From NCBI GenBank assembly GCA_947630545.1, contig CANRHX010000005.1:44-64043 (forward strand): 64,000 nucleotides of DNA, in the 5' to 3' direction. The notes under the pieces are model-generated. The model had not been told where the DNA came from. It saw only the letters and a list, made by a program, of their open reading frames with translations, and did not search any database. The translations under genes were made by a program, and so were the position numbers. Origin of the DNA: an uncultured Clostridia bacterium. Lineage in GTDB: Bacteria; Bacillota; Clostridia; TANB77; CAG-508. Of the stretch, positions 8,151-59,281 are shown in pieces (positions within the stretch are counted from its first letter, which is position 1; the number at the start of each line of letters is the position of its first letter).

Positions 8151-11100
8151 GAAGTCTGTTGGTATATTTTCTATTAATCTGTTTGTTGATGCTTTTGATT
8201 CTTCTTCTTTTATTAATACATTTATATCTTCTTTATATGAATCATTATCAATTGTTACTTCTATTATATCTTGTTTAGTTTCATAGCCTTCAGGTGCTTT
8301 TGTTTCTACTATCCAATATGTTGTTCCTGGAATTTCTCTTGCATTTTCTCTTCCTTGGATATATGTTCCATCAGATTGTAGGTTGTCTGGACTATTTTTT
8401 GCATCTTCTCCATATTCTAATCCTACAAATTCTACAAGTCCATCTTCTCCTGATTTTGCTACTCGTAGTGCATTTTGTCTTTTTTGTGCATCTTGCTCTG
8501 TTTTGTATATTGCAAATTCTGCATCTTTTAATCCTACTTTTGTTCCATTAGATTTTTTGTATTTGTATAATGTTATTCCTCCTGTATGTACTTCTGGTTT
8601 TTCTGATATATCTTCTTTTTCTTCGTTTGATTCGTTTGTATATTCTAATTTTGCTTTATTTGGTATTTCTTTTCCTAATACTTCTGCTAATAATTTTCCG
8701 CTTGAATCTTTGGCAAATATTGTTTTAAATTTTACTTCTATTATGTTTCCAGCATTTTCTTTTAATTTTTGAGAAATTTGTTGACCTTCACCTATAAATG
8801 TTAGTCTTAATGTTCCAGAATATTTATTTCCTAAAATACTAGATGTTGCTGTTGTATTGTTTGTATTTTGAGTATATGTTTCTTTATAATCTGTGCCTTT
8901 TTCTAATTCTGCTACTTGTTTTCCTTCATTGTTTATAATATTTACTGATATTATTCCTTTATATTCTAATCTATAATCTATATCATCTACAATTTCGTAT
9001 TTTTTATAGTCTGCAATATTCAATGGTAAACTAGAATTTATAACCCATTCATGTGGTTCATTTGTATCTATTTGATTATCATCATTATCATCATATCCTG
9101 AATCTTGGTTTGTAACAGTTTTTACTCCTTTGTGTATTTCTGGTTCTTTATAAATTACTATTTTTTCAAAGTCATCATCATCTTGTTGTCCTTCAAAGTA
9201 TAATTCTGGATTTTTTAAATCTTTATCAGTATTATTATTTCCTATATATCCATTATTTGGAATATCTGTAACTAATTTATTTTCTTGTGGATGTGTATCT
9301 GGTTGTGAATCTCTATCATTTACATTTTTTTCATTGTAGTCTTGTGAAATCCATGCTATATTTGTATATATTTTATCTGCTCCTTCTTCTGCGTCAGCTG
9401 TTACTTTACACTTAATTGTAACCGTTTCACTATGTAATGTATTTCCATCATACGCTGTTATTGTTCCCTGACTATCTTTTCTTGTTAATACTAATGTGTT
9501 TGTAGTATCTGTATAAGAAGCTGTATATTTAGATGTATTTTCATCCTCTATTTTAATAAATTGAAGTCCTGTTGGTAACTTATCTGTTATTGTTTTAGCA
9601 TATCCATCTATGTCTCCTTCATTATACACTGTTAATTTGTAATACACAAAATATCCTGGTTTTACAACTACTGGATCTTTTCTGTGTTTATATGTTGCTG
9701 TTGTTGTTATACTTTTTATTGTTTCATTATCAATTTCTGGCGTTCTTTGAATATTTGGAACTGCTACGTTTGTTCCTTTTTCATCTTCAATTTTTGTTAT
9801 ATATTTTCTTAATGCCAAGTCAAATTCTACAATTTTTAAATCTTCAAAGTCATCATCGTCTTGCTCTCCTTTTCCTCCTGTTGGTGCCTCTGGAGTATAA
9901 TTGTCTTTGTGAACATCGTTTGGAGTTGAATCTCTATCTTCTACATCTTTCTTTTTACTATCTTTTGTTTCTGTTATTTCTGCTATATTTTTTAAGTTAG
10001 ATGATGTTGCTTTATCATTTACTTGACATACTATGTATAATATTTCACTATCTAATTCCTTTGTAGATTTGTTAAATGCACTTAATAATTTTCCTTCTTC
10101 TGCTAACTTATTTGTTGTTATTTTCTTTGGATCATGTGTATCTTGTGTCCAACCATTATTTATATTAGTTGGGTCACTTGGTAAAAAATCTAATCCATCT
10201 GGCAAATAATCTGTTACTTCTGTTGCATATCCATCTATTTCACCTTCATTATATATTTCAATTGCATATGTTACCTTATCACCTTTTGCAACTTCTAAAG
10301 GTGTTTTTGTATGCGTTTTAGCAAGTGTTGTTCCATCATCATATGTTGCTGTATCTGTTGCTAATTTATTTTTTTCATCTTCTGCTATTGAAGGTTTTCT
10401 TGAAGTCTTAATATCACTTCCATTTATTTGGGTTATGTATTTTCTTAATGCTAAGTCAAATTGATAGTTCTTTACATATACATATAAATTTCCATCTTTT
10501 AATTCTACTTTTACTTTTTCTTCTGATTTTATTGAACTTCCACTACTATCTTTTACATCATATGTTACGCTTGATGCATAGTATTTTGAATCATCTTCTG
10601 CTTTATTTACTGTTACTGTTATTGTTCCATCAAATTTACAATATTTATCTGGTGCTTGTATCTCTTTAATTGTATATACATCTGGAGTATTAACATTAGA
10701 AGCATTTATTTTTACAGGTGTTTCTCCTGTAAACTTTAACTCACCAGTCACTTCTTTTTCTTTTTCTGCTGTATCCCCTGGTCCTTTGACACTAAATTTT
10801 GCTTTACTACTAAGATTTTTTCCTTCTGCATCTTGCTTTACAATGTATATATCATATGATCCTCTTTTAGGCATTACTTTTACTTTTTCAAAATCATCAT
10901 CATCTTGTTGTCCTTCATAATATTTAGTAGCATCACTTAAATCTGTTTCTGATGTGTAATTAGTTTTTCCTGTATAACCTAAACTATTTGTTGTTCTTAA
11001 ATCTTCTTTAGTATAATCACTTGAACCATTCTTTGGATAATCTCCTGGTGCTGAGTCTCTATCATGTCCAATTATACTTCCACTATATGGATTGTCTGAT

Positions 11101-12874: not shown

Positions 12875-15800
12875 AAATTTTATAACACATATTTTTTAAT
12901 TAAGAATATTCCTCCTGCTATTATTGCTAATATGCTTGTTCCTAACATTATATATGTTGCTTCTATACCTGTTGCTACTGATAACATTACTGGTGCGTCA
13001 TCTATATCATCTTCTCCTGGTTTCTTATTGTCTGGTGTTGAATCTTTATCTGGTACTCCCCATTCATTGTAATCTTCTGATATTTCTGCTGTATTTGTTT
13101 TTAATCCTAAATTGTTTGATCCATTTATCCATGTTAATAATACTTCTACATCAGCATATTCTCCTGGTTGTAATAATGTATTTTCTAGTTTTCTTGTTGA
13201 TATTACATTATTTCCTTCATCTTTCCAATCTGGATTATCTTTTGCTACAAATTTTAGTCCTTTTGGTATATAATCTGTTACTTCTTTTGCATATCCTGCT
13301 ATCTCTCCTTGATTATATACTCTTATTGAATATCTGAATTTTACTGTTACTTTTGATAGTTTCTTTCTATGTAATTCTACTTTTACTACATCTTCTGGGT
13401 CATCCCATGCATCATGTCCTGTTTTTGTTACTTTTGTTTTTCCATCTTCTATTACTATAGCTTCTGTTACCCATTTTCTTAATGCTAAGTCAAATTCTGG
13501 TACTCTTATTTTCTCTATGTCTTGGTCATCTTCTCCTTCATTCCATTCATCTGGTTTTGAGTCTATATCTTCAACTTCATCACCGTTTTCGTCTGTGTCA
13601 TCTGATATTTGTGCATAGTTGATTAATATTCTTTTACTTCCATTTGGCTCTGTTACTCTAAATGCTACTTTTATATCTTTATAGTCTGGGTTTGTATCTG
13701 ATATTTCTTTACTTTCATCAAAAGTCTTTAGTAAGTTTGGATTTTCTTCTTCTTCTGATGTCTTTCTTTCTTCTCCTTGTTCTTTTGATAGGTAGTCTGT
13801 TCTTATTATTACTGCTTTGCTTGCATCTTCTGTTTCTATATATTTCTTTACTTCTGAACTTCCATTTACTTTACATTCAATAACTTTTGATTCATCTTCT
13901 ACTTCTGTTCCTTCTTTTAGTTCTGTGTACATTACCCATCTGTATTCTTTGTTTGTATCATGCTCTGGTAAAAATTCTACTCCATCTGGAATGTCATCTG
14001 TTATTACTGATGCGTATCCGTCTATTTGACCTTCATTAAATATTCTTAATGTATATGTTACTACATTTCCATTTACTACATTTACTGGTTCTTTAGTATG
14101 TTCGTAAGTTATTTTTCCATCTGCATATTTTACTTGTGGTACTCTTGTTGTTACATCTTTATCTTCTACTTTTGTTATGAATTTTCTTAATGCTAAGTCA
14201 AAATTTAATGGTTTATTTTCTATTAATCTATTTGTTGTTTCTTTTGACTCTTCTTCTTTTATTAATACTTCTACATCTTCTTTATAAGTACCATTATTTA
14301 TTGTTACTTCTATTGGTTCTTTTATTGTTGCATATCCTTCTGGCGCTTTTGTTTCTACTATCCAATATTTTGTTCCTGGTATTACTCTTGCGTTTGCTTC
14401 TCCTTGTATATATGTTCCATCAGTTTTTTTGTTGCTTTCATTATCTTTTGCATCTTCTCCATATTCTAATCCTACAAATTCTACAAGTCCATTTTCTCCT
14501 GATTTTGCTGTTTGTACTGCATTTGTTTTATTTTCTGCATCTTCCCTTGTTCTATATATTGCAAATTCCGCATCTTTTAATGCTACTTTTTCTCCATTAG
14601 ATTTTTTGTATTTGTATAATGTTATTCCTCCTGTATGTACTTCTGGTATTTCTGATTCTTTATGGTTTTCTCCTGATTCATTTGTATAGTCTAATCTTGC
14701 TTTATTTGGTATTTCTTTTCCTATTATTTCTGCTAATAATTTTCCATCTTTATCTTTTGCGAATGTTGTTTTGAATTTTACTTCTATTATGTTTCCACCA
14801 TTTTCTTTTATTTTATCAGAAATTATTTGTTCTTCGCTTATAAATGTTAGTTTTAATGTTCCTGAATATTTATTTCCTAATATATCTGATATTGCATCTG
14901 GTTGTTCTGTATTTTGAGTATATGTTACTTTATAGTCTGTATTTTCTGTTAATTCTGCTACTTTTGTTCCTTTTTTGTCTATAATATTTACTGATATTAT
15001 TCCTTCATATACTAATCTATAGTCTATATCATCTACAATTTCGTATTTTTTATAGTTTGCTATATTTGATGGTAGACTAGAATTTATTACCCATTCATGT
15101 GGTTTATTTACATCATCATCATATCCTGAATCTTGGTTTTCAACTTCTTTTACACCTTTGTGTATTTCTGGTTCATCATAAATAATTATTTTTTCAAAGT
15201 CATCATCATCTTGTTGTCCTTCAAAGTATTCATCAGGATTTGTCCAATCTTTGTCATCATTACCTTCTCCAATATAACCTTTACTTGGACTATCTGTAAC
15301 TAAATCTTCTTCTTGTGGATGTTCACTTGGCTTTGAGTCTATATCTGTTACACCACTCTCATTGTAATCTTCAGAAATCCATGCTATATTTGTATATATT
15401 TTGTCTCCACCTTCTTTTGCATTTGCTGTTACTTGACATTTAATTGTTACTGTTTCACTATTTAAGGTATTTCCATCATAAGCTGTTATTGTTCCTTGAT
15501 TATCTTTTCTTGTTAATATTAATGTATTTGTACTTTCTGTATAAGAATCTAGTTTATATTTTGAATTATCTTCATCATCTATTGCAATGAATTTAAGTCC
15601 TGATGGCAATGTATCTGTTATTGTTTTTGCATATCCATCTATACCACCTTCGTTATATACAGTTAAACTATAATATACAAAATATCCTGGTTTTACAACT
15701 ACTGGATCTTTTCTATGATCATATGTTGCTGTTGTTGTTTCACTTTCTATTGTTGATTCGTCAATATCTGGTGTTCTTGATAGATTTGGAAGTTCTACAC

Positions 15801-16446
15801 CTTCTCCTTGTTCGTCTTCAACTTTTGTTATATATTTTCTTAATGCTAAATCGAATACTTGTAAATCTTCAAAGTCATCATCATCTTGTTCTCCAAGTCC
15901 TTCTTCTGGTTTCTTTGGACTATATTTGTCTGTATCTATATCTTCTGGCTGTGAATCTTCATCTACTTTATTTCCACTTTTGTCTTCTGCTTCTGTTATT
16001 GCTGCAATATTTTTTAAATTATTTGATGTTGCTTTGTTATTTACTACACATTCTACTAATAAATCTTTATAATATTCTTCTTCGTTTAATTTTGTATAAT
16101 CTCTATTTGCTGCTTTTATTATTGTATCTGCTAAATATCTTGTTGTTATTGTCTTTCCATCACTTGTCCATCCATATTGACTATTTATTGTACTTTCTTC
16201 TTTTAAGTCTAATCCTTCTGGTAAATAGTCTGTTACTTCTTTTGCATATCCGTCTATTTGTCCTTCATTATATACTCTTATTGTATATACTACTGTATCT
16301 CCCCTTGATACGGATACTTTATTTTTTGGATGTTTCTTCTCTGCTGTTGTTGTTTCTCCTTCTACTGCACTTCCACCAATTTGTGGCATTCTATCTTCTA
16401 TGTTTTTATCTCCTATTTTTGTTATGAATTTTCTTAATGCTAAATC
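12871..16446. repeat. Copy 2 of the ~3.5 kb direct repeat
   Basis: Same as above. The antisense ORFs in the track (e.g. 5366/13662, 5521/13817, 5894/14190, 6133/14429) translate identically. Confidence 0.9.
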
Positions 16447-18114
16447 CATTTTTTTAGGTTTTAATACTAGTTTTTCAAAGTCGTCATCATCTTCTTGTCC
16501 TTCATAATAGTAGTCTGAATCTGCTGGTGTAACTTCTTGATTTGTTTCTTTTCCTTTATAGCTTTCCATACTATCTTTATTTACTTGTGGTGTTGTCCCT
16601 GGTGCAGAATCTCTATCATATTTTGTATCAGGTCCTTTTTCAGTTCCAGTATATTTTTCTCCTGTTGAATCATTATAAGCTTCACTTATCCATGCTACAT
16701 TTGTTAATATTTTGTCTGTATCTGTATTTGCATGTGCTGTTACTGTACAAACTACTTGTACACTTGTTTTATCTAGTGTTCCATCATTATTATATTTATT
16801 TAGATTATTTAAAGCTTGTTTTTCTGATATTGTTACTTTATTATTGGCTGAATCATAGTTAAATGTATAATTATCATTATCTCCATGTAAATTTACTGTT
16901 GCTGATTGATCAAACTCCAATCCTGTAGGCAATTGGTCTACTATTTGTGTTGCTCTACCATTTACATCGCCTTCATTATATACTGTTAATGTATATATTA
17001 CTTCATCTCCTTCATTTACTGTAACTGGATCTTTTTTATGTTTGTATTCTGCAGTTGTACTTTCTCCATTATCTAGTTTTGTTGTTACTATGTTAGGATT
17101 TCTATCATTTATATTTGTATTTCCTACTTTTGTTATATATTTTCTTAATGCTAAGTCAAATTCTTTTTTACCAGGTTCTATTTCTATTACTGGTTGTGAT
17201 TTTGTTGTTTCAGTTGTTTTTTTAGCTATTGTTCCATTTGTATATAAATATACTGTATTTGTGCTTTCATAATTTCCATTTGTAACATTTTTAGCATTTG
17301 TTTTTGCTTGTCTTATTAAATATTTATATAGTTGCTTTGCCATATTATTTTGGTAATCCCCATCAGTTCCTGTACCTGTTGATAAACTTTTATAACTATT
17401 TTGATTTTGTTGATAATCTGCATGTGTTCTATAATATAAAAATGCGGCTTTAGAATTATTTTCAGATGTATCTGAATCATCATCAACATTTAAATATTTT
17501 CTATCAGGATTTGTAAAATACCATAGTGCAACTTGTTGTACTGCTCTTACTTGGTTAGGAGTTATTATACGACCAGGCTTAAACTGTTTTAATTGTTCAT
17601 ATGTATATTCTTCGGCTTCATGTAATACATAATAATGTTTTCCATTATATGTATATTGTTTATCAAATAATGGTTTTATATATGCTTCAAATTCTGTATC
17701 AGAACTTCCTAAATAAAATAAATCTGCTAGTGCTAATATTTCATCATAATTTTCTAGATACATTCCTTCGTTTTGAATAGTTTGTTTTTCTGTTGACATA
17801 TTGTATTTAGTTTTATAAATATCTTGATATTTATTATTAGTTTCAGAATAGTTAGTCCTATTTTCGAACCCTACTCCTGCCATAGCACAATATGCATTTG
17901 GTCTTCTTTCTCCATTACTATTTGCAATTTGTGTAATTCCTAAGTCAGTACTATTTAATCCGAATTCAGGATTATCATCATTAACATTTGCAGAATTTGC
18001 ATTTAATTCCATTAATGTTAATTCAATATTTTCAACAGCAAATACATTTTGTGCAAATACTGCTACTAATATTAATGCGCTTAACATTGTTAAAATAATT
18101 CTTTTAATTTTCAT
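12880..18114 (-). CDS. Giant cell-surface adhesin paralog (1744 aa), same architecture with 5 DUF11-like repeats
   Basis: Signal peptide MKIKRIILTMLSALILVAVFAQNVFA. YCAMAGVGF and VQQVALWYFTN motifs. Five FDLALRK units. The C-terminal part, about 1100 aa, is amino-acid identical to the 2665-aa protein. Confidence 0.85.
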   Translation of the reverse strand: MKIKRIILTMLSALILVAVFAQNVFAVENIELTLMELNANSANVNDDNPEFGLNSTDLGITQIANSNGERRPNAYCAMAGVGFENRTNYSETNNKYQDIYKTKYNMSTEKQTIQNEGMYLENYDEILALADLFYLGSSDTEFEAYIKPLFDKQYTYNGKHYYVLHEAEEYTYEQLKQFKPGRIITPNQVRAVQQVALWYFTNPDRKYLNVDDDSDTSENNSKAAFLYYRTHADYQQNQNSYKSLSTGTGTDGDYQNNMAKQLYKYLIRQAKTNAKNVTNGNYESTNTVYLYTNGTIAKKTTETTKSQPVIEIEPGKKEFDLALRKYITKVGNTNINDRNPNIVTTKLDNGESTTAEYKHKKDPVTVNEGDEVIYTLTVYNEGDVNGRATQIVDQLPTGLEFDQSATVNLHGDNDNYTFNYDSANNKVTISEKQALNNLNKYNNDGTLDKTSVQVVCTVTAHANTDTDKILTNVAWISEAYNDSTGEKYTGTEKGPDTKYDRDSAPGTTPQVNKDSMESYKGKETNQEVTPADSDYYYEGQEDDDDFEKLVLKPKKMDLALRKFITKIGDKNIEDRMPQIGGSAVEGETTTAEKKHPKNKVSVSRGDTVVYTIRVYNEGQIDGYAKEVTDYLPEGLDLKEESTINSQYGWTSDGKTITTRYLADTIIKAANRDYTKLNEEEYYKDLLVECVVNNKATSNNLKNIAAITEAEDKSGNKVDEDSQPEDIDTDKYSPKKPEEGLGEQDDDDFEDLQVFDLALRKYITKVEDEQGEGVELPNLSRTPDIDESTIESETTTATYDHRKDPVVVKPGYFVYYSLTVYNEGGIDGYAKTITDTLPSGLKFIAIDDEDNSKYKLDSYTESTNTLILTRKDNQGTITAYDGNTLNSETVTIKCQVTANAKEGGDKIYTNIAWISEDYNESGVTDIDSKPSEHPQEEDLVTDSPSKGYIGEGNDDKDWTNPDEYFEGQQDDDDFEKIIIYDEPEIHKGVKEVENQDSGYDDDVNKPHEWVINSSLPSNIANYKKYEIVDDIDYRLVYEGIISVNIIDKKGTKVAELTENTDYKVTYTQNTEQPDAISDILGNKYSGTLKLTFISEEQIISDKIKENGGNIIEVKFKTTFAKDKDGKLLAEIIGKEIPNKARLDYTNESGENHKESEIPEVHTGGITLYKYKKSNGEKVALKDAEFAIYRTREDAENKTNAVQTAKSGENGLVEFVGLEYGEDAKDNESNKKTDGTYIQGEANARVIPGTKYWIVETKAPEGYATIKEPIEVTINNGTYKEDVEVLIKEEESKETTNRLIENKPLNFDLALRKFITKVEDKDVTTRVPQVKYADGKITYEHTKEPVNVVNGNVVTYTLRIFNEGQIDGYASVITDDIPDGVEFLPEHDTNKEYRWVMYTELKEGTEVEDESKVIECKVNGSSEVKKYIETEDASKAVIIRTDYLSKEQGEERKTSEEEENPNLLKTFDESKEISDTNPDYKDIKVAFRVTEPNGSKRILINYAQISDDTDENGDEVEDIDSKPDEWNEGEDDQDIEKIRVPEFDLALRKWVTEAIVIEDGKTKVTKTGHDAWDDPEDVVKVELHRKKLSKVTVKFRYSIRVYNQGEIAGYAKEVTDYIPKGLKFVAKDNPDWKDEGNNVISTRKLENTLLQPGEYADVEVLLTWINGSNNLGLKTNTAEISEDYNEWGVPDKDSTPDNKKPGEDDIDDAPVMLSVATGIEATYIMLGTSILAIIAGGIFLIKKYVL

Positions 18115-35256: not shown

Positions 35257-35412
35257 ATGATTGAGAGCGAAGAAAAAAAAGAAATAGAAATCGTTGATGG
35301 CGACGGTACAAACCTAGATATTTCACCTGTTTATGAAGATATAGGTGATTTAAGACCAAAAACAAATAATGAAAAACCTAAAGACATTATAATACCTAAA
35401 GTAAAAAAATAA
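35257..35412 (+). CDS. Possible 51-aa acidic protein
   Basis: AGGGGG RBS 9 nt before the ATG at 35257. MIESEEKKEIEIVDGDGTNLDISPVYEDIGDLRPK.... No homology recognised. Confidence 0.4.
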   Translation: MIESEEKKEIEIVDGDGTNLDISPVYEDIGDLRPKTNNEKPKDIIIPKVKK

Positions 35413-35593
35413 GTTTGTTATTGGTTGTGTCATTGGTTCCGGGTTTGCTTGACACATTTTGTGCTATCGGTGCAAGGTCTAAGTGTTTTAAACCTGGCAC
35501 CGATGGCACAAAATGTGTCAAGCAAACCCGGAACCAGTGGCACAAAATGTGTCAACCAAACCCGGAACCAATGACACACAACCAGTAATAAAC
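35413..35593. repeat. Hyper-palindromic intergenic element, copy A (181 bp; one left arm, right arm with an extra 31-bp unit)
   Basis: Left arm tgtgtcattggttccgggtttgcttgacacattttgtgctatcggtgcaaggt (from 35426). Right arm acctggcaccgatggcacaaaatgtgtcaagcaaacccggaacc... (from 35493). 31-bp units lie at 35426-35456, 35514-35544 and 35548-35578. The element fills the whole gap between two convergent stops (35412, 35594). Confidence 0.9.
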
Positions 35594-36259
35594 TTATTTT
35601 TTATTTGCAATTTCACCTTGATTTTTATAAATACTATTTTCCGCAACTACACCTCTTACAGAAGATAATGGATAAATATTAGTATTTTTACAAATTACAC
35701 TTCCAGGATTTAAAACAGATCCGCAACCAACTTCTACATTATCGCCAATCATACATCCGAATTTTTTTAATCCTGTTTCATATAATTTATCTCCATCTTT
35801 TACAACAACTAATTTTTTATCTGATTTAACATTTGAAGTTATTGATCCAGCACCCATATGTGACTTATAACCTAATATTGAATCTCCTACATAATTATAA
35901 TGTGGAACTTGAACATTATTAAATAATACTACGTTTTTTAATTCTGTAGAATTTCCCACAACTGAGTTTTCTCCTACAATTGCATTTCCTCTAATAAAAG
36001 CACAATGTCTTATTTCGGCATTTTTTCCTATTATTGCAGGTCCAGTAATACTTGCTGTAGGTGCCACTTTGGCTGATTTAGCAATCCAAACATTCTCATA
36101 TTTTTCTTCATACTCATCTTTATTTAAGCTTTTTCCTAATTCTTTTATAAATTCACTTATTTTAGGTAATACTTCCCATGGATATGTGGCACCATCAAAT
36201 AACTTTGATGCAATTGTTTCTTTTAAATTATATAAATTTTTTATTGTTATATCATTCAT
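35594..36259 (-). CDS. Left-handed beta-helix (hexapeptide-repeat) acyl/acetyltransferase-like protein
   Basis: Repeated [LIV]G...... hexapeptide pattern (IIGKNAEIRHCAFIRGNAIVGENSVVGNSTELKN...). Confidence 0.65.
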   Translation of the reverse strand: MNDITIKNLYNLKETIASKLFDGATYPWEVLPKISEFIKELGKSLNKDEYEEKYENVWIAKSAKVAPTASITGPAIIGKNAEIRHCAFIRGNAIVGENSVVGNSTELKNVVLFNNVQVPHYNYVGDSILGYKSHMGAGSITSNVKSDKKLVVVKDGDKLYETGLKKFGCMIGDNVEVGCGSVLNPGSVICKNTNIYPLSSVRGVVAENSIYKNQGEIANKK

Positions 36260-39214: not shown

Positions 39215-39226
39215 TTTAGATATAAT

Positions 39227-39250
39227 AAAAGAAGCCTTATGGCTTCTTTT
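39227..39250. terminator. Bidirectional terminator between spoIVA and the M23 peptidase gene
   Basis: aaaagaagcc-ttat-ggcttctttt perfect hairpin between convergent stops. Confidence 0.75.
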
Positions 39251-39255
39251 ATTTA

Positions 39256-41097: not shown

Positions 41098-43335
41098 ATG
41101 GAATTTAAAGAATGGTCAGGATTTAAAAGTGGTGAATGGCAAGAAGAAATAAACGTAAGAGATTTTATTCAAAAAAATTATACACCATATGAAGGAGATT
41201 CTAGTTTTTTAGAAGGGGCAACTCAAAAAACTAAAAAACTATGGGATGAAGTATTAGAATTATATAAAAAAGAAAAAGAATCAAAAGGTGGAGTTTTAGA
41301 TATAGATACAAAAACACCTTCTACAGTAGCTTCACACGAAGCTGGTTATATTGACAAAGATTTAGAAGAAATTGTAGGATTACAAACAGACGAGCCTTTA
41401 AAAAGAGCTATAATGCCATTTGGAGGCATTAGAATAGTAGAGAAAGCAACTGCTGCATGTGATAAACAATTAGATGAAAAAGTTGAAGAAATCTTTCATA
41501 AATATAGAAAAACTCATAATGATGGAGTATTTGATATATATACACCAGATATAAGAGCTGCTCGTAGTTCTCATTTACTTACAGGATTACCAGATGGTTA
41601 TGGTCGTGGAAGAATAATTGGTGATTACAGACGTGTAGCACTTTATGGAGTAGATAAATTAATTGAAGAAAAGCAAGAAGAATTAGAAATTTTAGATGTT
41701 GATAATTTTACTGAAGATATCGTAAGAAATAGAGAAGAAGTTAGTGAACAAATTAAAGCATTAAAAGAGCTTAAAGTAATGGCATCAAAATATGGTTATG
41801 ATATATCTATTCCAGCGTCTAATGCAAAAGAAGCTGTACAATGGTTATACTTTGGATATCTTGGTTCTGTAAAGTCACAAGATGGTGCTGCAATGAGCTT
41901 GGGTAGAACTTCTACATTTTTAGATGTTTATATAGAAAGAGATTTACAAAATGGTACTTTAACAGAAATTCAAGCTCAAGAAATAATTGATCACTTTGTA
42001 ATGAAATTAAGAATGGTTAGATTTTTAAGAACTCCTGAATACAATGAATTGTTTAGTGGAGACCCAGTTTGGGTAACTGAAAGTATTGGTGGTATGGGAG
42101 TTGATGGAAGAACATTAGTTACTAAAAATTCTTTTAGAATTCTTCATACTTTAGAGAATTTAGGACCAGCACCTGAGCCAAACCTAACAGTTTTATGGTC
42201 TACTAGATTACCAGAAGGATTTAAGAGATATACAACAAGTCTTTCAATTAAAACATCTTCAATTCAATATGAAAATGATGATGTTATGAGAACAACACTT
42301 GGAGATGATTATGGAATAGCTTGTTGCGTTTCTCCAATGAAAATAGGAAAACAAATGCAATTTTTCGGTGCTAGAGCTAATTTAGCAAAAACTCTACTTT
42401 ATGCAATAAATGGAGGTAGAGATGAACTTTCAGGCAAACAAATAACTCCAAAATATACACCTATAACTTCAGAATATTTAGATTATGATGAAGTTATGGA
42501 AAAATTTGATGTTATGATGGATTACGTTGCAAGAATATATATTAAAGCTTTAAATGGAATTCACTTTATGCATGATAAATATTGCTATGAGTCATTAGCA
42601 ATGGCTCTACATGACGGAGATGTAATTAGAACAATGGCATGTGGAATTGCAGGTCTTTCAGTTGTTGCTGATTCTTTATCTGCAATTAAGTATGCAAAAG
42701 TAAAAGTTATAAGAGACGAAACTGGTTTAGCTACAGACTTTGAAATTGAAGGAGATTATCCTCAATTTGGAAATGATGATGATAGAGTTGACCAAATTGC
42801 TGTAAATATAGTTAGAACATTTATCAAAAAATTAAGAAAACATCCTACTTATAGAAATTCAAAGCATACATTATCAATTTTAACAATAACATCTAATGTT
42901 GTTTATGGTAAATCAACAGGAAATACTCCAGATGGAAGAAAATCTGGTGAACCATTTGGACCTGGTGCAAATCCACTACATGGAAGAGATAGAAATGGTG
43001 CATTAGCTGTAATGAACTCAATTGCAAAACTTCCATTTGATTCATCAGAAGATGGTATATCTTATACTTTCTCTATAACACCTGGTACTCTTGGAAAAGA
43101 CGATGAGCAAAAAATTTCAAATTTAGTTAGCATGTTGGATGGTTACTTTGCTCAAACAGGACATCATATAAATGTAAATGTTTTTGATAGAAGTTTATTG
43201 CAAGATGCAATGGATCATCCAGAAAAATATCCACAACTTACAATTCGTGTTTCTGGATATGCTGTAAACTTTACAAAATTAACTCGTGAGCAACAATTAG
43301 ATGTAATTAATAGAACAATTCATGAAAGAATATAA
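41098..43335 (+). CDS. pflB: Pyruvate formate-lyase (glycyl radical enzyme)
   Basis: 745 aa. Active-site ACCVSPM. C-terminal glycyl radical motif [11 protein letters not shown]. Confidence 0.96.
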
Positions 43336-43346
43336 AACAAACAAAA

Positions 43347-43380
43347 CTGCCAAAAGATATTATTACTTTTGGCAGATTTT
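43347..43380 (+). terminator. Hairpin between pflB and pflA (partial terminator/processing site)
   Basis: ctgccaaaag-9 nt-cttttggcag followed by atttt. Confidence 0.5.
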
Positions 43381-43391
43381 AGGAGCAGAAC

Positions 43392-44120
43392 ATGGAAAAT
43401 AACGATAAAAATAACTATGTAAATATTCACTCATTTGAATCTTTTGGAACTGTTGATGGTCCAGGAATTCGATTCGTATTTTTTATGCAAGGTTGTCATT
43501 TAAAGTGCAAATATTGTCATAATCGTGATACTTGGAAGGTCAATAGCGGAACTCTATATTCAATTGATGAAATATTTAATAAAATTATGCATTATAAAAA
43601 CTATATCTATCCGAATGGAGGGGTTACTGCATCTGGTGGTGAACCTCTACTACAGGTCAAGTTTTTAATAAATCTTTTTAAAAAACTAAAAAAAGAGAAA
43701 ATTCATACTTGCATTGATACATCTGGTATGTTTAGAATTACTGATGATATAAAAGAATTACTTTCTTTAACTGATTTAGTTTTACTGGACATTAAACATA
43801 TCGACGATGAAAAATGCAAAAAATTAGTAGGCTTTTCTAATAAATATGAATTAGATTTTGCGAGATATTTATCAGATAATGGTATTAAAATGTGGATTAG
43901 ACAAGTTTTAATTCCTGGATATACTGATGATGAAAATGATTTATTAAGACTTAAAGCATTTATAGAAAGTTTAAAAACAGTTGAAAAAGTTGAACTTCTT
44001 CCCTACCACAATATGGGAAAATTTAAATGGAAAGACCTTGGATTAAAATATGAATTAGAAAATGTACAACCTTCCACTAACGAAGATGTGGAACATGCAA
44101 AAAAAATTTTAGGAATATAA
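43392..44120 (+). CDS. pflA: Pyruvate formate-lyase activating enzyme (radical SAM)
   Basis: GPGIRFVFFMQGCHLKCKYCHN (CxxxCxxC). 242 aa. Confidence 0.95.
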   Translation: MENNDKNNYVNIHSFESFGTVDGPGIRFVFFMQGCHLKCKYCHNRDTWKVNSGTLYSIDEIFNKIMHYKNYIYPNGGVTASGGEPLLQVKFLINLFKKLKKEKIHTCIDTSGMFRITDDIKELLSLTDLVLLDIKHIDDEKCKKLVGFSNKYELDFARYLSDNGIKMWIRQVLIPGYTDDENDLLRLKAFIESLKTVEKVELLPYHNMGKFKWKDLGLKYELENVQPSTNEDVEHAKKILGI

Positions 44121-44252
44121 AAAATTTGTGTCACTGGTTCCGGGTTTGGTTGACACATTTTGTGCCATCGGTGCAAGGTCAGAGTATTTTAAACCTGGCA
44201 CCGATGGCACAAAATGTGTCAACCAAACCCGGAACCAGTGACACAAATTTTT
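44119..44252. repeat. Hyper-palindromic intergenic element, copy B (about 134 bp, nearly perfect)
   Basis: aaaaatttgtgtcactggttccgggtttggttgacacattttgtgccatcggtgcaaggt | cagagtattttaa | acctggcaccgatggcacaaaatgtgtcaaccaaacccggaaccagtgacacaaattttt. I saw one arm mismatch. It spans exactly from the pflA stop to the stop of the convergent gene. Confidence 0.92.
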
Positions 44253-45189
44253 ATCCTTCCAATAATTTTAAATTTACATTTTCTACTTTATATTTATTAG
44301 TATTTTCATCCAATTTAAATTGAATTAAAGATTGAGATAAATCATCTGCATTTTGTCGTAAATCTGTAGTAAACAGTAATGAAATTTTAGAAATCTCTAC
44401 CTGTGATGTAACAATTTCCTTAAATATTTCTGCCAAATGTTTTTCGTCTTCACCAACAATTATAAGTTGAGGCATACTGCTATATCCTGAATCTCCCATA
44501 ACATAATTTTCATAAAAATCTTTATATAATTTCATTTTATCAACTAGCTTCTTTTGCCAATCATCTTCTCTTCTAACTACTTCAAATATAAAATCAATTG
44601 ATTTATTAGCTTTGGTAAGTTTTACCCCACCATTTGTTTTAAATGTTTTCCCTGATTGCTTTGCATTAATAACTGGTTTTATAGTATAGCTATCAAAAGC
44701 TTTTACCTTCTTTTTATATGCAATTAATATTTGATTTCCAACTAATCTTTTCTTTATCATTGCAACCGGTTTAGTATTATCTGATTGTTGCCATTTACAT
44801 TCAATTTCTTTTGAATTTAATAAGTATTTTCCCATTTTTTCTAAACAATAAATTCTATATACACCTTTTCCTTCATCTGATGTAAAGTAGTATCTTGTAA
44901 GAATTTTAGATTTTACTAAACTTTCTAATTTGTTATTTAACTTATCTTGGGTTTGTGGATCAATACCTTTTAATTCTAGCAATTGATAAATTTGCCTTGA
45001 TGTTATGAACTCAAAGTCATTTACAATTTCTAATATTGCAAAATGAATGTCTGTTATATGCCCTATGTTTATTTTATGAACTATTTGATTCATAGATACA
45101 TACGCATCTTTCCCATCAAAGGTTTTTATTTCACCTTCTCTCATTGCAAATGGTGATACTTCTGCTTTAATTTCACTATCTTTTATCAT
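44251..45189 (-). CDS. Replication-relaxation-like (PF13814-like) winged-helix protein, orphan
   Basis: The N-terminal third has the pattern FAILEIVNDFEFITSRQIYQLL...LESLVKSKILTRYYF...GVYRIYCLEKMGKYLL, typical of plasmid/ICE replication-relaxation proteins. Assignment is by pattern only. Confidence 0.4.
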   Translation of the reverse strand: MIKDSEIKAEVSPFAMREGEIKTFDGKDAYVSMNQIVHKINIGHITDIHFAILEIVNDFEFITSRQIYQLLELKGIDPQTQDKLNNKLESLVKSKILTRYYFTSDEGKGVYRIYCLEKMGKYLLNSKEIECKWQQSDNTKPVAMIKKRLVGNQILIAYKKKVKAFDSYTIKPVINAKQSGKTFKTNGGVKLTKANKSIDFIFEVVRREDDWQKKLVDKMKLYKDFYENYVMGDSGYSSMPQLIIVGEDEKHLAEIFKEIVTSQVEISKISLLFTTDLRQNADDLSQSLIQFKLDENTNKYKVENVNLKLLEG

Positions 45190-45227: not shown

Positions 45228-46032
45228 TTATACAACTAATACTTTTACTTTTTTTCTTTCGTAATCAATTCTTTTTATATAAACATCAACCTTTTGCCCG
45301 TATTCCAAACCGTCTTCATATTCTGCCATTCCTACCAAATTAGGCATTAGTTCAATGAATATACCATTTTTATTTTTTTCTGTTTCACGTACTATTCCTC
45401 TTGCCTTTTGACCAACTGAAAATTGTTTTGCATTTTCTTCCCATGTTCCGAGCAATTCTTTGTATGACAAAATCACTCTTCCATCTTGTCTATTTATAGA
45501 TTTTACCATAACTTTTATCCTTTGTCCAATTTTTAGCCTTTCAAATGGTGATTTTATTCTTGCAATTGATAAATCTTCAATATGAGCTAATCCGACTATT
45601 CCGCCACCAATTTCTATAAATACTCCATAGCTTTCTATTCTCTTGACTATTCCGTGTAACTAAGTCTCCCTCTTTTAATTCTTTTTTTACCCAATTTAAT
45701 GCTTCATTTTGAACTTCTTTTCTTGATAGAAATACTGTATTCTCATCTTTTTTTTGTTTTACTTTGAATTGAACATATTTATGTACTTTTCCTGTACAAA
45801 GATTTATTTTTGGAAGTCCATCTTCTCCAATATTTATTCCTTCAACTTCAGATCTTGGAATTATCCCTCTAATATTATTTCCTAAATTTATATGTAAATT
45901 AAATTCATCATCACATTCTTCTACAATTCCTTGTAGTGTTTTTTTATTTTGTATATATTCTTCAATATTTTCTTCATTTAATACTGCTATTTTATCTAGC
46001 CATCCCTCTGGCGTAATTTTATTTAAAATCAT
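45228..46032 (-). pseudogene. Multi-S1-domain RNA-binding protein interrupted by a 1-nt frameshift
   Basis: The 151-aa ORF ends in out-of-frame junk (RNSQENRKLWSIYRNWW). Shifting one base at about 45654 reads GDLVTGIVKRIESYGVFIEIGGGIVGLAHIEDLSIARIKSPFERLKIGQRIKVMVKSINRQDGRVILSYKE, running straight into the 93-aa ORF (45228..45509). Confidence 0.75.
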
Positions 46033-52335: not shown

Positions 52336-52356
52336 AATATTTAATACTCCTTTTTT

Positions 52357-52387
52357 TGTGTCAACCAAACCCGGAACCAATGACACA
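52357..52387. repeat. Single 31-bp unit of the palindromic element, copy C, in the nrdD-nrdG spacer
   Basis: tgtgtcaaccaaacccggaaccaatgacaca flanked by T7 and A5. Differs by one base from the reverse complement of unit 35426-35456. Confidence 0.85.
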
Positions 52388-52396
52388 AAAATTTTC

Positions 52397-54523
52397 TTAC
52401 AAGTGCAATACCCTTGATTTTATCTCTTTTGTTTTGCCAGTATTCCAAAAATTCTCTCCAAGATAGCCACAAGTTCTTCTAACAACATTCATTTTTGAAT
52501 GATCCTTATTTCCACATTGTGGGCACTCCCATTCATTATTATCATTTATTTGAATTTCTCCATCAAATCCACATACATGGCAATAATCTGATTTTGTATT
52601 AAATTCTGCATATTGAATATTATCATATATAAATTTAACTGCTGTTTCCAATGCAGATAAATTATTTTTCATATTTGGTATTTCAACATAAGATATTGCT
52701 CCGCCTGTAGATAGCTTTTGAAAATCACTTTCAAATTTTAATTTATCAAATGCATCTATTTTTTCTCTAACATCTACATGATATGAATTTGTGTAATATC
52801 CTTTGTCAGTAATATCTGTTATTTCACCAAATTTTTCTTTATCTATTCTTGCAAATTTATAACACAAACTTTCTGCTGGTGTACCATACAATGCAAATCC
52901 TATATTTGTTTCTTTTTTCCACTTTTCAACAGTATCTTTTAAGTATTTCATTACTTTTAATGCAAATTCTCTTCCTTCTGGTGTTGTATGAGATACACCC
53001 TTTACAAGTTTAGTCATTTCATATATTCCTATATATCCCAAAGATATAGTAGAATAACCACCATACAATAAATTGTCTATTTTTTCACCTTTTTCTAATC
53101 TTGCAATTGCACCATATTGCCAATGAATTGGGCTTATATCTGATTTTGTGCCAAGCAAAGCATAATGGCGACACATTAATGCTTCTTTACATATTTCTAA
53201 TCTCTCATCTAATAATTTCCAAAATTTTTCTTCATCTCCGTCTGCTATAATTCCAATTTGAGGTAAATTAATGCTTACTACACCTTGATTAAATCTTCCT
53301 TCAAATTTATAATTTCCATTTTCATCTTTCCAAGGTGATAAAAAACTTCTGCATCCCATTGGGCTAAATACATTTCCTTCGTAATTTTCTCTCATTTTTT
53401 TAGCTGATATATAGTCTGGATACATTCTTTTAGCTGAGCATTTTACTGCAAGTTTTGTTAAATAATCATATTTTCCACCTTTTAAGCAGTTATGTTCATC
53501 TAAAACATATACCAATTTTGGAAATGCTGGTGTAACATATACACCTGCCTCATTTTTTATTCCTTCATATCTTTGTTTTAGTACCTCTTCAATTATCATT
53601 GCATTTTCTTTTATATATGGATCATTTTCTTCTAAATGCAAGAATAATGTTACAAATGGAGATTGACCATTTGTTGTCATTAAAGTATTTATTTGGTATT
53701 GTATTGTTTGAACTCCTGCCTTTAATTCTGATTTTATTCTATCTTCAACAATTTCTTCTAACATTTCTTTAGAAATTTTATTTTTATATTTTTCTGATAA
53801 TTCTTTTCTAAATTTGTCATAACTTTTTCTTAAATATTTTCCTAAATGTATTAAATCTACAGATTGTCCACCATATTGATTGCTTGCTACAGCTGCTATT
53901 ATTTGTGTTGTAACTGTACATGCAACTTGAAAACTTTTTGGACTTTCTATTAATTTTCCATTCATTACTGTTCCATTGTCTAGCATGTCAGCTATATTGA
54001 TTAAACAGCAATTGAATATAGGCTGAACAAAATAATCTGCATCATGAAAATGTAAAATGCCTTCTTGATGTGCTTTTACTATTTTTTCTGGTAGTAGTAA
54101 CCTATTTGTTAAATCTCTAGATACTTCTCCTGCTATGTAATCTCTTTGTGTTGATGCAAGCATTGTATTTTTATTTGAATTTTCTTCTGCCAGCTCTTTA
54201 TTCTCGTTTCTTATTAGTCCTAATATTGATTCGTCTGTTGTGTTTTGTTTTCTAACTAATGCTCTTGTGTATCTATAAACAATATATTTTTTAGCTAATT
54301 CAAATCTTTTTCTATCCATCAACTGTTGTTCTATTATATCTTGAATATCTTCAACAAGCATTCTTTTTTTGTTTAATTCTTCTATATATTTTACTATTTC
54401 TTTTATTTCTTCTTTTGTAGCTCTTTCTTTTGCTCTTACTTCTTGATTTGCTTTTTCAATTGCAATAGCAATTTTTTCTTTATTATAATCTACTGCTCTT
54501 CCATCCCTTTTTATAACTTTCAT
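52397..54523 (-). CDS. nrdD: Anaerobic ribonucleoside-triphosphate reductase
   Basis: Start moved to MKVIKRDGRAVDYNKEKI (ATP-cone) after a GGAGGAAC RBS. C-terminal Zn ribbon CHVCG...CPQCG and glycyl radical RRTCGYLG. Confidence 0.95.
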   Translation of the reverse strand: MKVIKRDGRAVDYNKEKIAIAIEKANQEVRAKERATKEEIKEIVKYIEELNKKRMLVEDIQDIIEQQLMDRKRFELAKKYIVYRYTRALVRKQNTTDESILGLIRNENKELAEENSNKNTMLASTQRDYIAGEVSRDLTNRLLLPEKIVKAHQEGILHFHDADYFVQPIFNCCLINIADMLDNGTVMNGKLIESPKSFQVACTVTTQIIAAVASNQYGGQSVDLIHLGKYLRKSYDKFRKELSEKYKNKISKEMLEEIVEDRIKSELKAGVQTIQYQINTLMTTNGQSPFVTLFLHLEENDPYIKENAMIIEEVLKQRYEGIKNEAGVYVTPAFPKLVYVLDEHNCLKGGKYDYLTKLAVKCSAKRMYPDYISAKKMRENYEGNVFSPMGCRSFLSPWKDENGNYKFEGRFNQGVVSINLPQIGIIADGDEEKFWKLLDERLEICKEALMCRHYALLGTKSDISPIHWQYGAIARLEKGEKIDNLLYGGYSTISLGYIGIYEMTKLVKGVSHTTPEGREFALKVMKYLKDTVEKWKKETNIGFALYGTPAESLCYKFARIDKEKFGEITDITDKGYYTNSYHVDVREKIDAFDKLKFESDFQKLSTGGAISYVEIPNMKNNLSALETAVKFIYDNIQYAEFNTKSDYCHVCGFDGEIQINDNNEWECPQCGNKDHSKMNVVRRTCGYLGENFWNTGKTKEIKSRVLHL

Positions 54524-54726
54524 AACTGTTCCTCCATTTCGTATTATGAGCTCATTATAATGGTAGATTTTTTTAGTTTCTAGTTGCAATTGCAACATTT
54601 TTATTTTGAGTTTCATATTTTGAAGGTTACTCTAAGTATTCGACTTTTTATTACATTTTTATTACAAAATGTTCGGTTAACATAGTTATGTGACAACCAT
54701 TCATTTCTTTATATAGTTAAAATTTG

Positions 54727-54767
54727 CCAAAAAGATAGCGTGCAGATTATATAAAAAATCTACACGC
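54727..54767 (-). terminator. Terminator after the GC-rich 62-aa gene
   Basis: Stem gcgtgcagat/atctacacgc (one G-U) followed by a T-run on the minus strand. Confidence 0.6.
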
Positions 54768-54774
54768 CTTTGGC

Positions 54775-54963
54775 TTAATTATTACCAAATTTTACCGTTA
54801 TGGCAATAGTTGTAATGATTTTCCCTCGCTCATCCTTGGTCATACCAACAGACGGAGCGCTTCTCTCAATTTCCACCAATCCACGCCGAGTTTTGTAGGC
54901 TTGAATTCGGGCATTAAGATCGTCCTCGGAATTTGCTAAGAAAGTGTAAAATTCAGTATTCAT
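54775..54963 (-). CDS. 62-aa protein with foreign (GC-rich) codon usage; faint Cse60-like pattern
   Basis: GGAGGG RBS 6 nt before the ATG at 54963. MNTEFYTFLANSEDDLNARIQAYKTRRGLVEIERSAPSVGMTKDERGKIITTIAITVKFGNN. About 41% G+C by hand count. Confidence 0.55.
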   Translation of the reverse strand: MNTEFYTFLANSEDDLNARIQAYKTRRGLVEIERSAPSVGMTKDERGKIITTIAITVKFGNN

Positions 54964-55086
54964 GTTTATCCCTCCATGAAAAGTTGCGCTCTCGATAAAT
55001 CGAGAACTTTGTCCATTTGCTAACATACAAATATTATATCATATTATGTAAAGAAAATCAAATTTTTTCTATTAGTTTAAAATGTC

Positions 55087-55115
55087 TTGACACAAAGATA
55101 TTTTAAGAATATACT
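55087..55115 (+). promoter_or_regulatory. Promoter of the oxidoreductase operon
   Basis: TTGACA, 17 nt, TATACT, about 35 nt upstream of the AAGGAGG RBS. Confidence 0.6.
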
Positions 55116-55149
55116 ATGAATGTAAAAATATAGTAAGGAGGCAACCCAT

Positions 55150-58199: not shown

Positions 58200-58200
58200 G

Positions 58201-59281
58201 ATGAACGACGATTTAAAAAAAGATCTACAAAATGAAGAAATTTTAAATCCAAGTGAAAAACCAAAAAACAAGAGACTTAATATTATAAGTCTCTTGCTTA
58301 TATTTATAATATTTGTTGGACTTGCGTTTTATATGATTCATGTTGATGGATTGGATAATATTATAAATTTGTTAAAATCAGTTGATTACAAATGGGTTGC
58401 TGGTCGGTGTAATAATTTTAATTTTATGGTGGATCTGTGATGCAGTTACTCTTCATCTTCCCCTTAAAACTATGTATAAGGATCAAAAGTTTTCTAATTC
58501 ATTTAAGGTAGCTATGATTGGTCAATTATTTAATAATATTACTCCGTTCTCATCTGGCGGTCAACCTATGCAAGCTTATGAACTCACTAAAACAGGAAAG
58601 CGCGTTAGTGATTCCATGTCAGCAATGACTATGAAGTTTATTATGACTCAAACAGCTTTAGCAGTATTTACTTCTGCATTTATAATTGCTCAATTTAACT
58701 TTTTAAAAGACTTAATGAGCAATTATATGTGGGTCGTAGTTATTAGCTTTGTCGTGAATATTTTAGCAATTGTTTTTGTACTACTTGCAGGAATTAATAA
58801 GAATATTATTTTGACAATATGCAAACCTTTTATTAAGTTAGGTTCTAAATTGCACATTGTAAAAGATTATGAAAAAATATTTAATAAATTTGACGAGAGC
58901 GTTTCCAATTTTAGTATACAGTTTAAAAATATGAAAAAATATCCAAAAACTATTATTGGAATTTTTGTAATGGCAATTATCCAAAGTATGCTTTATTATT
59001 CTATTACTTATGTTGTTTATAGAGCATTTGGAAATTATGGTGTTAGCTATTTTCAAATAGTTCCAGCTCAGGCAATTTTACTTTTGATTATGACCTTTAT
59101 TCCAACTCCAGGCTCTGGTATTGGTGCTGAAGGTGGATTTTTAATTATTTTTAATTCAATCTTTAAGCAAGGTACAATTAATATGTCTATTTTGTTTTGG
59201 AGATTATATACATTTTACTTACCAATAATTTTTGGAGCTTTTTTCTTAATTCCTACAAGGAAAAAGAAAATAAGAAGTTGA
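58201..59281 (+). pseudogene. UPF0104/LPG-synthase-TM (flippase-like) membrane protein interrupted by a 1-nt frameshift
   Basis: The 79-aa ORF (58201..58440) and the 299-aa ORF (58382..59281) are the two halves. Removing one G from tggg at 58393-58396 gives ...SVDYKWLLVGVIILILWWICDAV.... Family motif FNNITPFSSGGQPMQAYEL. Confidence 0.7.

Follow-up and report, generated by a model that had tools for sequence, protein, structure and literature searches.

The locus considered here raises the question of what occupies the interval at 35413-35593 of a 64,000-nt stretch of DNA, hereafter the window. This 181-bp spacer lies between two convergent genes and is bounded by the stop codon of a 51-aa open reading frame (ORF; 35410-35412) and that of a minus-strand hexapeptide transferase gene (35594-35596). 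Almost all of it is an inverted repeat. The DNA of the window is chromosomal and comes from a member of the Clostridia that is anaerobic and forms endospores, represented by an uncultured metagenome-assembled genome (MAG) with 28% G+C. The genes of the window include those for SpoIVA, PFL/PflA, NrdDG, a four-subunit 2-oxoacid:ferredoxin oxidoreductase, S7-EF-G-EF-Tu and mur/fts products. The organism is found in metagenomes only, and its exact proteins are present in four low-coverage ENA assemblies with DNA identities of 99.9-100%. Its MAG lineage is represented in samples ERZ27249118, ERZ27249329, ERZ27249337 and ERZ27249603.

An initial annotation, made from the letters of the DNA, had described the spacer between the convergent stop codons as nearly one long inverted repeat with arms of more than 50 bp. 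A repeat search recovered such arms, 58 nt long and 91% complementary (35425-35482 and 35488-35545). The annotation had also placed two consecutive units in the right arm, at 35514-35544 and 35548-35578. Both were found exactly there, and the duplicated arm unit corresponds to a second pairing register of 53 nt and 87% complementarity (35426-35478 and 35526-35578), offset by 34 bp. An outer pair of arms, 27 nt long and 93% complementary (35404-35430 and 35576-35602), takes in both stop codons, so that the palindrome, copy A, spans 35404-35602. Tandem Repeats Finder (TRF) reported a 34-bp period with 2.6 copies in the right arm (35490-35578) and a 12-bp period with 1.9 copies at the left edge (35416-35438), the latter a partial-unit duplication. 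When both strands were folded as RNA, the minimum free energies of copy A were -127.9 kcal/mol for the plus strand and -117.1 kcal/mol for the minus strand, compared with about -48 kcal/mol for shuffled sequences (z = -18 and -17). The components of copy A and the other copies in the same organism are as follows.

35404-35602, no strand: copy A, whole palindrome between the convergent 51-aa ORF and hexapeptide transferase gene (repeat search, folds).
35404-35422, no strand: outer left arm of copy A (AAAAAATAAGTTTG...), partner at 35584-35602 (inverted repeat and the empty site in relative L035).
35416-35425, plus strand: truncated degenerate unit (TGTTATTGGT) that abuts the first full unit (TRF 12-bp period; direct repeat).
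35426-35456, plus strand: unit A-L, TGTGTCATTGGTTCCGGGTTTGCTTGACACA (core match; covariance model, 51.3 bits).
35460-35510, no strand: centre of copy A, diverged half-units TGTGCTATCGGTGCAAGG and CCTGGCACCGATGGCACA (34-bp repeat family comparison).
35514-35544, minus strand: unit A-R1, with TGGCACA instead of TGACACA as its outer stem half (core match).
35548-35578, minus strand: unit A-R2, the additional tandem unit responsible for the second pairing register (covariance model, 52.8 bits).
44120-44252, no strand: copy B, composite palindrome between the stop codons of pflA and a Replic_Relax-family gene (repeat search, folds, comparison with copy A).
44127-44157, plus strand: unit B-L, TGTGTCACTGGTTCCGGGTTTGGTTGACACA (core match; covariance model).
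44215-44245, minus strand: unit B-R, exact reverse complement of unit B-L (core match; covariance model).
52357-52387, minus strand: copy C, solo 31-bp unit inside the nrdD-nrdG operon (core match; covariance model).
L017:912-976: locus D, two head-to-tail units in the spacer between Sua5/YrdC and hisS, about 5.5 kb beyond the right end of the window.

The further copies that had been reported at 44.1 and 52.4 kb are copies B and C. Copy B possesses perfect arms of 55 bp and reaches z = -21 in RNA and DNA folding alike; over 122 bp its identity to copy A is 93%. Relative to a composite of the B type, copy A is longer by one unit in its right arm and, at either side, by a unit that is degenerate and truncated. 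Copy C lies 9 nt past the nrdD stop codon (52397-52399), and the ribosome-binding site of nrdG (52347-52351) is 5 nt further on. Locus D was recovered on L017, a contig of the same organism that reaches about 6.5 kb past the window. The stop codon of Sua5 (TGA, L017:936-938) falls within its first unit, indicating that the repeat encodes the final nine codons of Sua5. The ribosome-binding site of hisS directly follows the second unit, and there is no space for a T-box leader ahead of hisS. The family in this organism thus amounts to four loci and eight full units in the 70.6 kb (70,585 bp) covered. A covariance model built from the units detected no weaker copies elsewhere in the window, and the remaining inverted repeats of the 64 kb are terminator-sized, at 31 nt or less.

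The 31-bp motif TGTGTCA-N17-TGACACA, which the initial annotation took for the repeating unit, is the true building block of the family. It is a hairpin module of the form TGTGTCA-YT-GGTTCCGGGTTTG-ST-TGACACA, with a 7-bp stem and a 17-nt loop for which neither RNA nor DNA folding of either strand indicates internal pairing. Across the family the stem measures 7-8 bp (up to 11 bp with flanking A/T) and the loop 15-17 nt, with minimum free energies of -5 to -9 kcal/mol as DNA and -7 to -17 kcal/mol as RNA. The asymmetric loop core GGTTCCGGGTT is unchanged in all 21 of the 21 units. Within the window, the 13-nt core GGTTCCGGGTTTG occurs exactly six times, compared with an expectation of 0.14 even with two mismatches, and a 21-nt inner segment has five sites against none expected. 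Neighbouring modules are spaced by AAA or TTT, which accounts for the 34-bp period.

A CACATTTTGTGCCATCGGTGC segment had been proposed as the other constituent of the arms. The segment is present, but it is not a separate component; it consists of the end of one unit and a diverged half-unit, with TGTGCCATCGGTGCCAGGTTT and TGTGTCACTGGTTCCGGGTTT matching at 16 of 21 positions. From this match it follows that a head-to-head junction of two half-units forms the centre of each of the composites A and B, in copy A with a short non-palindromic loop between the half-units, and that each arm is a 34-bp tandem array. On contigs L021 and L033 of a related species, described below, the same organisation recurs. 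The units occur singly (copy C), as an inverted doublet (copy B), as head-to-tail pairs (locus D and L021:12128-12200) and in clusters (copy A, L021:20900-21185 and L033:5141-5245). The head-to-tail arrays have a period of 31-34 bp and the inverted arrays form hairpins of 55-95 bp. Truncated units adjoining full ones (35416-35425 in the window, about 1735 in L021 and about 9027-9050 in L033) all end in the 5' part of the loop core.

Copy A is not an assembly artefact. It recurs in L012 and L013, short-read assemblies of this organism that are independent of each other, and is identical there except for one SNP in one of them; in addition, a sister species possesses analogous arrays at the same sites. 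Contigs L012, L013 and L014, from three samples, all break off inside copy B (window 44103-44179). The G+C-rich arms had been contrasted with an AT-rich genome, and the elements indeed contain 45-47% G+C, compared with 28% for the window.

No known sequence accounts for the element, as had been stated for ORFs, transposases and RNA motifs. A 57-aa ORF across copy A has no homologue, and translations of the element in three frames found no match among 5.8 billion proteins. By Pfam, neither a Y1/RAYT nor any other transposase was detected in the 70 kb of the window organism and 45 kb of the sister species (about 115 kb). The whole window gave no Rfam match at gathering score, and in E-value mode Rfam returned hits on both strands that were all to generic miRNA-precursor hairpin models and scored near half of the respective thresholds. 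BLAST searches of phage and plasmid collections found no similarity, and a literature search for the core sequence yielded irrelevant papers only. Hence, no described repeat or RNA family was matched.

These results bear on the structured ncRNA listed among the initial options, here taken to include an RNA that regulates in cis as well as a separate RNA gene. Very stable folds are predicted, and the units at C, at D and on the metagenome contig L004 lie directly 5' of ribosome-binding sites, as might be expected of such an RNA. However, only sub-threshold, generic models responded in Rfam, the conserved core is sense at C and antisense at D, and perfect palindromy marks a DNA repeat rather than an evolved RNA. 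Because the units occur in both orientations relative to transcription, an RNA of this kind is barely credible as the explanation.

Relatives were gathered by searches with NrdD and the SNF2 helicase and consist of uncultured 'Clostridia bacterium' MAG species whose NrdD proteins are 87-94% identical. One of them, probably a sister species, is represented by ENA contig k141_1178564 of sample ERZ27293309 (L021 and L033; 45 kb contiguous) and carries the family in five spacers.

Sister species, locus 1: between HisKA and S26.
Sister species, locus 2: between nrdD and nrdG.
Sister species, locus 3: between Replic_Relax and pflA.
Sister species, locus 4: between rubredoxin and SpoIVA.
Sister species, locus 5: between hexapeptide transferase and a small ORF.

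The density is therefore four loci per 70.6 kb in the window organism and five per 45 kb in the sister species. In contrast, neither the pattern nor the covariance model detected any unit in six other relatives (P0003, P0004, P0005/P0125, P0013, P0123), with NrdD 92-93% identical and about 12-23 kb of syntenic DNA each. The core-plus-stem pattern had only three chance matches, all coding, in the 185,579 species representatives of GTDB, and scans of IMG/VR gave 0 and then 7 chance matches. This distribution indicates that the family is phylogenetically very narrow. Among eight pattern matches in JGI/ENA metagenome contigs, the only true relative is L004, an unrelated low-coverage contig with a pair of sister-type units upstream of an aspS-like gene.

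The initial annotation had envisaged a new dispersed palindromic family, and had allowed that the repeat might instead be confined to three loci and absent from relatives. The fourth locus outside the window and the five in the related species settle the matter in favour of the former. The family is dispersed, and it is present in some close relatives and absent from others. Judged against Rfam, phage and plasmid collections, GTDB and the literature, it is a genuine and previously undescribed family of gut Clostridia. The composites of the sister species have an inner module of their own (G..GCATATATAT-TWGATTT; L021:20975-21115 and L033:8945-8990). Its pflA locus contains an additional centre of about 95 bp with its own hairpin, which may represent a further small element lying within the first.

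All nine loci of the two species are intergenic, apart from the overlap of one unit with the end of Sua5, and they favour either the terminator positions of convergent genes or sites just 5' of a ribosome-binding site. Comparison of filled and empty sites indicates what stood there before. At locus A, relative L035 has a plain, minimal bidirectional terminator hairpin of 32 nt, AAAAAAAATAAGGG-taag-CCCTTATTTTTTTT, with both stop codons in its stem. The empty site orthologous to copy A is L035:7245-7256, AAAAAAAATAAGGGtaagCCCTTATTTTTTTT. The outermost arms of the window locus consist of the sequence that matches L035 (AAAAAATAAG...CTTATTTTTT), and by this alignment the arm at 35404-35422 corresponds to the A tract and stem of a putative ancestral bidirectional terminator. 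In L033, another palindrome with one unit per arm and a different centre is present between the same flanks. At the 3' end of SpoIVA, the window (39224-39253) and L036 possess homologous plain terminators (AAAAGAAGC...GCTTCTTTT), and in L033 an array of three units fills the space from the A tract to the T tract. Locus A keeps the outer terminator stem around its array, and the SpoIVA locus keeps the A and T tracts only. At these two loci, the arrays hold the positions of earlier terminator hairpins. Copy number also varies between nrdD and nrdG, where the window has one unit, L021 has two tandem units, and L023 and L029 have a short spacer with a ribosome-binding site only.

The terminator positions lend some substance to an alternative in which the palindromes are functional RNA modules, either bidirectional terminators or 3'-end mRNA stabilisers, that were selected and spread by recombination without a dedicated enzyme. 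Both A and B separate the 3' ends of convergent genes, and each is flanked by an A tract and, at the opposite edge, by a T tract. Moreover, both strands form very stable hairpins, and at two loci the arrays coincide exactly in position with the plain bidirectional terminator of relatives, lying between the A and T tracts of the latter. However, the base of the stem beside the U tract is rich in A-U pairs in A and B, and loci C and D do not fit the bidirectional-terminator pattern. At C, D and the nrdD-nrdG and HisKA-S26 spacers of the sister species, the flanking genes are co-directional, and the next feature on the transcribed strand is an A run or ribosome-binding site rather than a U tract. 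Terminators of about 30 nt suffice for relatives at the same sites, and a terminator role does not account for an invariant, asymmetric 13-nt loop found in either orientation to transcription. Neither A nor B was called by a simple scan for terminators, but hairpins of this length fall outside the stem and loop limits of that scan. Selection as RNA modules alone is therefore unlikely to explain the family, and termination may plausibly be a secondary property acquired by exaptation.

A second alternative, suggested by the discrete appearance of A and B as composites with long inverted ends and about 93% identity over 122 bp, is a classical MITE. The repeat would then be a deletion derivative of an insertion sequence (IS) with a DDE transposase, and the long arms would be its terminal inverted repeats. 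In contrast to this expectation, target-site duplications are absent from all nine loci, and the ends are not fixed, with one, two or three units in tandem or inverted order. No parent IS was found in the phage, plasmid, GTDB or metagenome scans. Given the lack of target-site duplication, the variable number of units and the existence of solo units, a MITE origin is very improbable. Of the initial proposal of a REP/MITE-like element, the REP-like organisation is supported and the classical MITE is disfavoured.

The distribution of filled sites speaks to the history of the family. The DNA covered in the sister species takes in the sites of three window loci, and each of the three is filled in that species too. 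By rough hypergeometric reasoning, with five filled sites among about 32-40 spacers, this overlap is far beyond chance (P ~0.002). The tree is not resolved by protein identities, whose matrices have a star-like form. A 1-nt insertion in the LPG_synthase_TM gene (window about 58200-59281, plus strand) causes a frameshift that leaves pieces of 79 and 255 aa. This insertion is common to the window species and L021, and the gene is intact (350-365 aa) in four other relatives. This joint pseudogenisation is a useful marker of relationship and suggests that the two element-bearing species are sisters and that the filled sites were inherited. Together, these comparisons appear to favour shared ancestry over independent insertion at the same three sites.

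Despite this apparent inheritance, the units have diverged by species rather than by site. The unit of the sister species is GTTGTCAA-Y-GGTTCCGGGTT-YRAY-TGACAAC, with the same core and inner stem (TGTCA/TGACA) as in the window species. The outer two stem pairs are swapped between the species, G-C becoming U-A and, in some units, U-A becoming G-C. Stem pair 5-33 is G-C in seven units of the window species and U-A in ten others, nine from the sister species and one from L004. The stem type is uniform within each species and different between the two, and the inner module of the A and B composites is likewise common within a species and not across species. If the sites were inherited, such within-species uniformity requires either homogenisation or turnover in place. 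Mobility may be inferred from the comparison between species; against it, the loci show no insertion or excision polymorphism among the four metagenome samples of the window organism.

The symmetrical change in the stem could also be expected if the 31-bp unit were a double-stranded site for a host protein, with inverted TGTCA/TGACA half-sites and a specific centre, and the arrays were binding platforms, for example in nucleoid organisation or for a site-specific recombinase. In this case the half-sites would have changed together, as for a dimer with altered specificity. The centre is conserved in sequence and not in structure alone, and the 31-34 bp phasing is close to three helical turns. 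However, six close syntenic relatives lack the family, the sites are 3' ends and intercistronic spacers rather than promoters, and an asymmetric centre is unusual in a symmetric dimer site. Nor was a lineage-specific DNA-binding gene found alongside, and a protein site of this type is decidedly unlikely as the basis of the family. Known operators do not provide a match. TnrA/GlnR binds TGTNA-N7-TNACA, for which the half-sites are similar and the spacing, 19-21 nt here, is wrong. NrdR, Rex, CRP/FNR and Spo0A boxes do not match, and locations at 3' ends also disfavour operators. Promoter-like matches to a -35 box (TTGACA), including the one at the HisKA-S26 spacer of L021, are incidental only.

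The neighbour of copy B was considered as a possible partner of the repeat. The Replic_Relax (PF13814) gene at 44251-45189 (minus strand), which ends within a few nt of copy B, is a conserved chromosomal gene for which no solved homologue was found. Its family has been assigned to HTH plus PD-(D/E)XK nucleases (PMC3424549). The gene is syntenic in relatives without the element, so it is not a specific partner of the family. The neighbourhood of copy B is prone to rearrangement: in one relative (L023-L026; L023:19523-22127 compared with window 41098-45189) pflA has the opposite orientation with respect to pflB and the Replic_Relax gene, and another, L029, lacks pflA. Nearby, an S1-domain protein gene is seemingly split into ORFs of 93 and 151 aa (45228-45509 and 45577-46032, minus strand). 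It is a single gene of 266-267 aa in L021, L023 and L027 and is similarly split in L029.

Other features of the window lie apart from the family. Two genes on the minus strand (4584-12581 and 12880-18114) encode giant surface-type proteins of 2665 and 1744 aa with DUF11 and SpaA/prealbumin-like repeats. Within each lies an antisense ORF of 274 aa (7307-8131 and 15603-16427), and their equal lengths point to a large shared internal repeat. The 534-bp spacer at 54617-55149, between the divergent nrdD and oxidoreductase genes, contains a G+C-richer small ORF on the minus strand (about 54780-54965). Three short-read contigs of the window organism stop in this spacer (at 54838, 54993 and 55138), and the cargo of relatives at this spot varies among a HicB-like antitoxin, a LytTR regulator and a C1 peptidase.

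Based on the current evidence, the palindromes probably represent a lineage-specific family of REP/BIME/REPIN-like interspersed extragenic repeats, mobilised in trans, a reading to which a probability of about 0.6 may be assigned. REP, BIME and REPIN repeats are organised as singlets, as inverted doublets that form hairpins, and as clusters (PMC3116915, PMC3733652). The present family resembles them in its short extragenic hairpin modules (20-40 bp in REPs, here a 31-bp imperfect palindrome), in its combination of singlets, inverted doublets equivalent to REPINs and clusters or tandem arrays, and in its location at the 3' ends of genes and between cistrons. Its variants are species-specific, its inheritance at orthologous sites appears to be vertical, and target-site duplications are absent. 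Head-to-tail dimers, intercistronic position, species-specific variants and vertical persistence are all features of the REP literature (PMC3116915, PMC3733652, PMC6006769).

The likeness is not complete. In REPs the stem measures 6-13 bp, the loop is in most cases 2-5 nt long, GTAG or CGTC forms a terminal tag, and the conserved parts are the stem and the 5' tag (PMC3733652). In contrast, the 15-17 nt loop is the most conserved part of the unit described here, there is no GTAG or CGTC tag, and TGTC is present only within the stem. Another difference is the prominence of head-to-tail arrays that keep strictly to a period of 31-34 bp. RAYT-REP systems include a cognate single-copy RAYT gene (Y1 HUH, PF01797-like) with repeats on its flanks; no RAYT was found in the roughly 115 kb covered. 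The host is a low-G+C member of the Clostridia, a group for which the literature searched contained no REP family. However, RAYT group 1 and IS200-type Y1 enzymes have been reported in Clostridia (PMC5581495, PMC6006769).

On the REP-like reading, the hairpin would be extruded in single-stranded DNA, where an enzyme acting in trans from a gene at another place in the genome would recognise and process it; a RAYT/IS200-type Y1 HUH transposase is the candidate precedent for such an enzyme. New copies would land by preference in or beside existing hairpins or copies, which would give rise to the arrays and to the likeness within species. Copies would then persist where the hairpin between A and T tracts was kept, standing in for the bidirectional terminator or 3'-end stabiliser that they had replaced.

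The unusual loop suggests another version of events, in which the unit would not be a RAYT-type REP but the substrate of a different enzyme that reads and nicks the large conserved loop, much as rolling-circle Rep proteins cut a conserved loop carried by a short stem. In this scheme, folding back and copy choice at the nick could generate the head-to-head palindromes, the truncated units that end in the 5' part of the loop, and the turnover in place by which copies at inherited sites stay alike within a species. The family would then represent a new system of hairpin repeat and enzyme that colonises terminators. Such a mechanism seems quite unlikely.

Comparison with other palindromic repeats helps to place the family. 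The BOX element of pneumococci (boxA-boxB(n)-boxC) is an intergenic repeat of Firmicutes with three module types, a variable tandem sub-unit and a strong predicted fold, for which no mobilising enzyme is known. The present family is similar in being a modular intergenic repeat of Firmicutes with a variable number of tandem sub-units and a strongly predicted fold, but it is built from a single hairpin unit in inverted arrays and has no apparent sequence relationship to BOX. The Correia elements of Neisseria measure about 100-150 bp and possess defined terminal inverted repeats and a TA duplication. DNA-uptake sequences are 10-12-mers (approximately) that occur roughly once per kb, also within genes, and their inverted pairs act as terminators. 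Like the present family, Correia elements and inverted uptake pairs are palindromic intergenic repeats, and theirs are transcribed into long RNA hairpins that can act as terminators or processing sites. In contrast, terminal repeats with TA duplication and a spread of about one per kb within genes are absent here. Elements derived from IS200/IS605 carry sub-terminal hairpins that differ between the left and right ends and use a specific target of 4-5 nt, and IS1397-type elements insert into the loops of REPs. These would share with the present family a process centred on single-stranded hairpins and a tendency to land in existing hairpins, and duplications are absent in both. However, neither left-right asymmetry nor a target motif is present at the nine loci.

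Overall, REP-type repeats and domesticated transposases are well studied in Proteobacteria and essentially undescribed in low-G+C Clostridia. The main points of interest in the present family are the atypical hairpin with its conserved loop, the occupancy of terminator positions with empty-site controls, and the concerted divergence. In practical terms, the palindromes fragment short-read assemblies of these gut MAGs and give rise to spurious ORFs. Compact and young, with an element-bearing sister species, clean empty sites and terminator positions, the family is tractable for study of the origin of such repeats, their choice of sites and their homogenisation. The conserved 13-nt loop offers a concrete handle for a search for the partner protein and, if the loop-nicking reading were true, the family would constitute a new system of hairpin repeat and enzyme in Clostridia.
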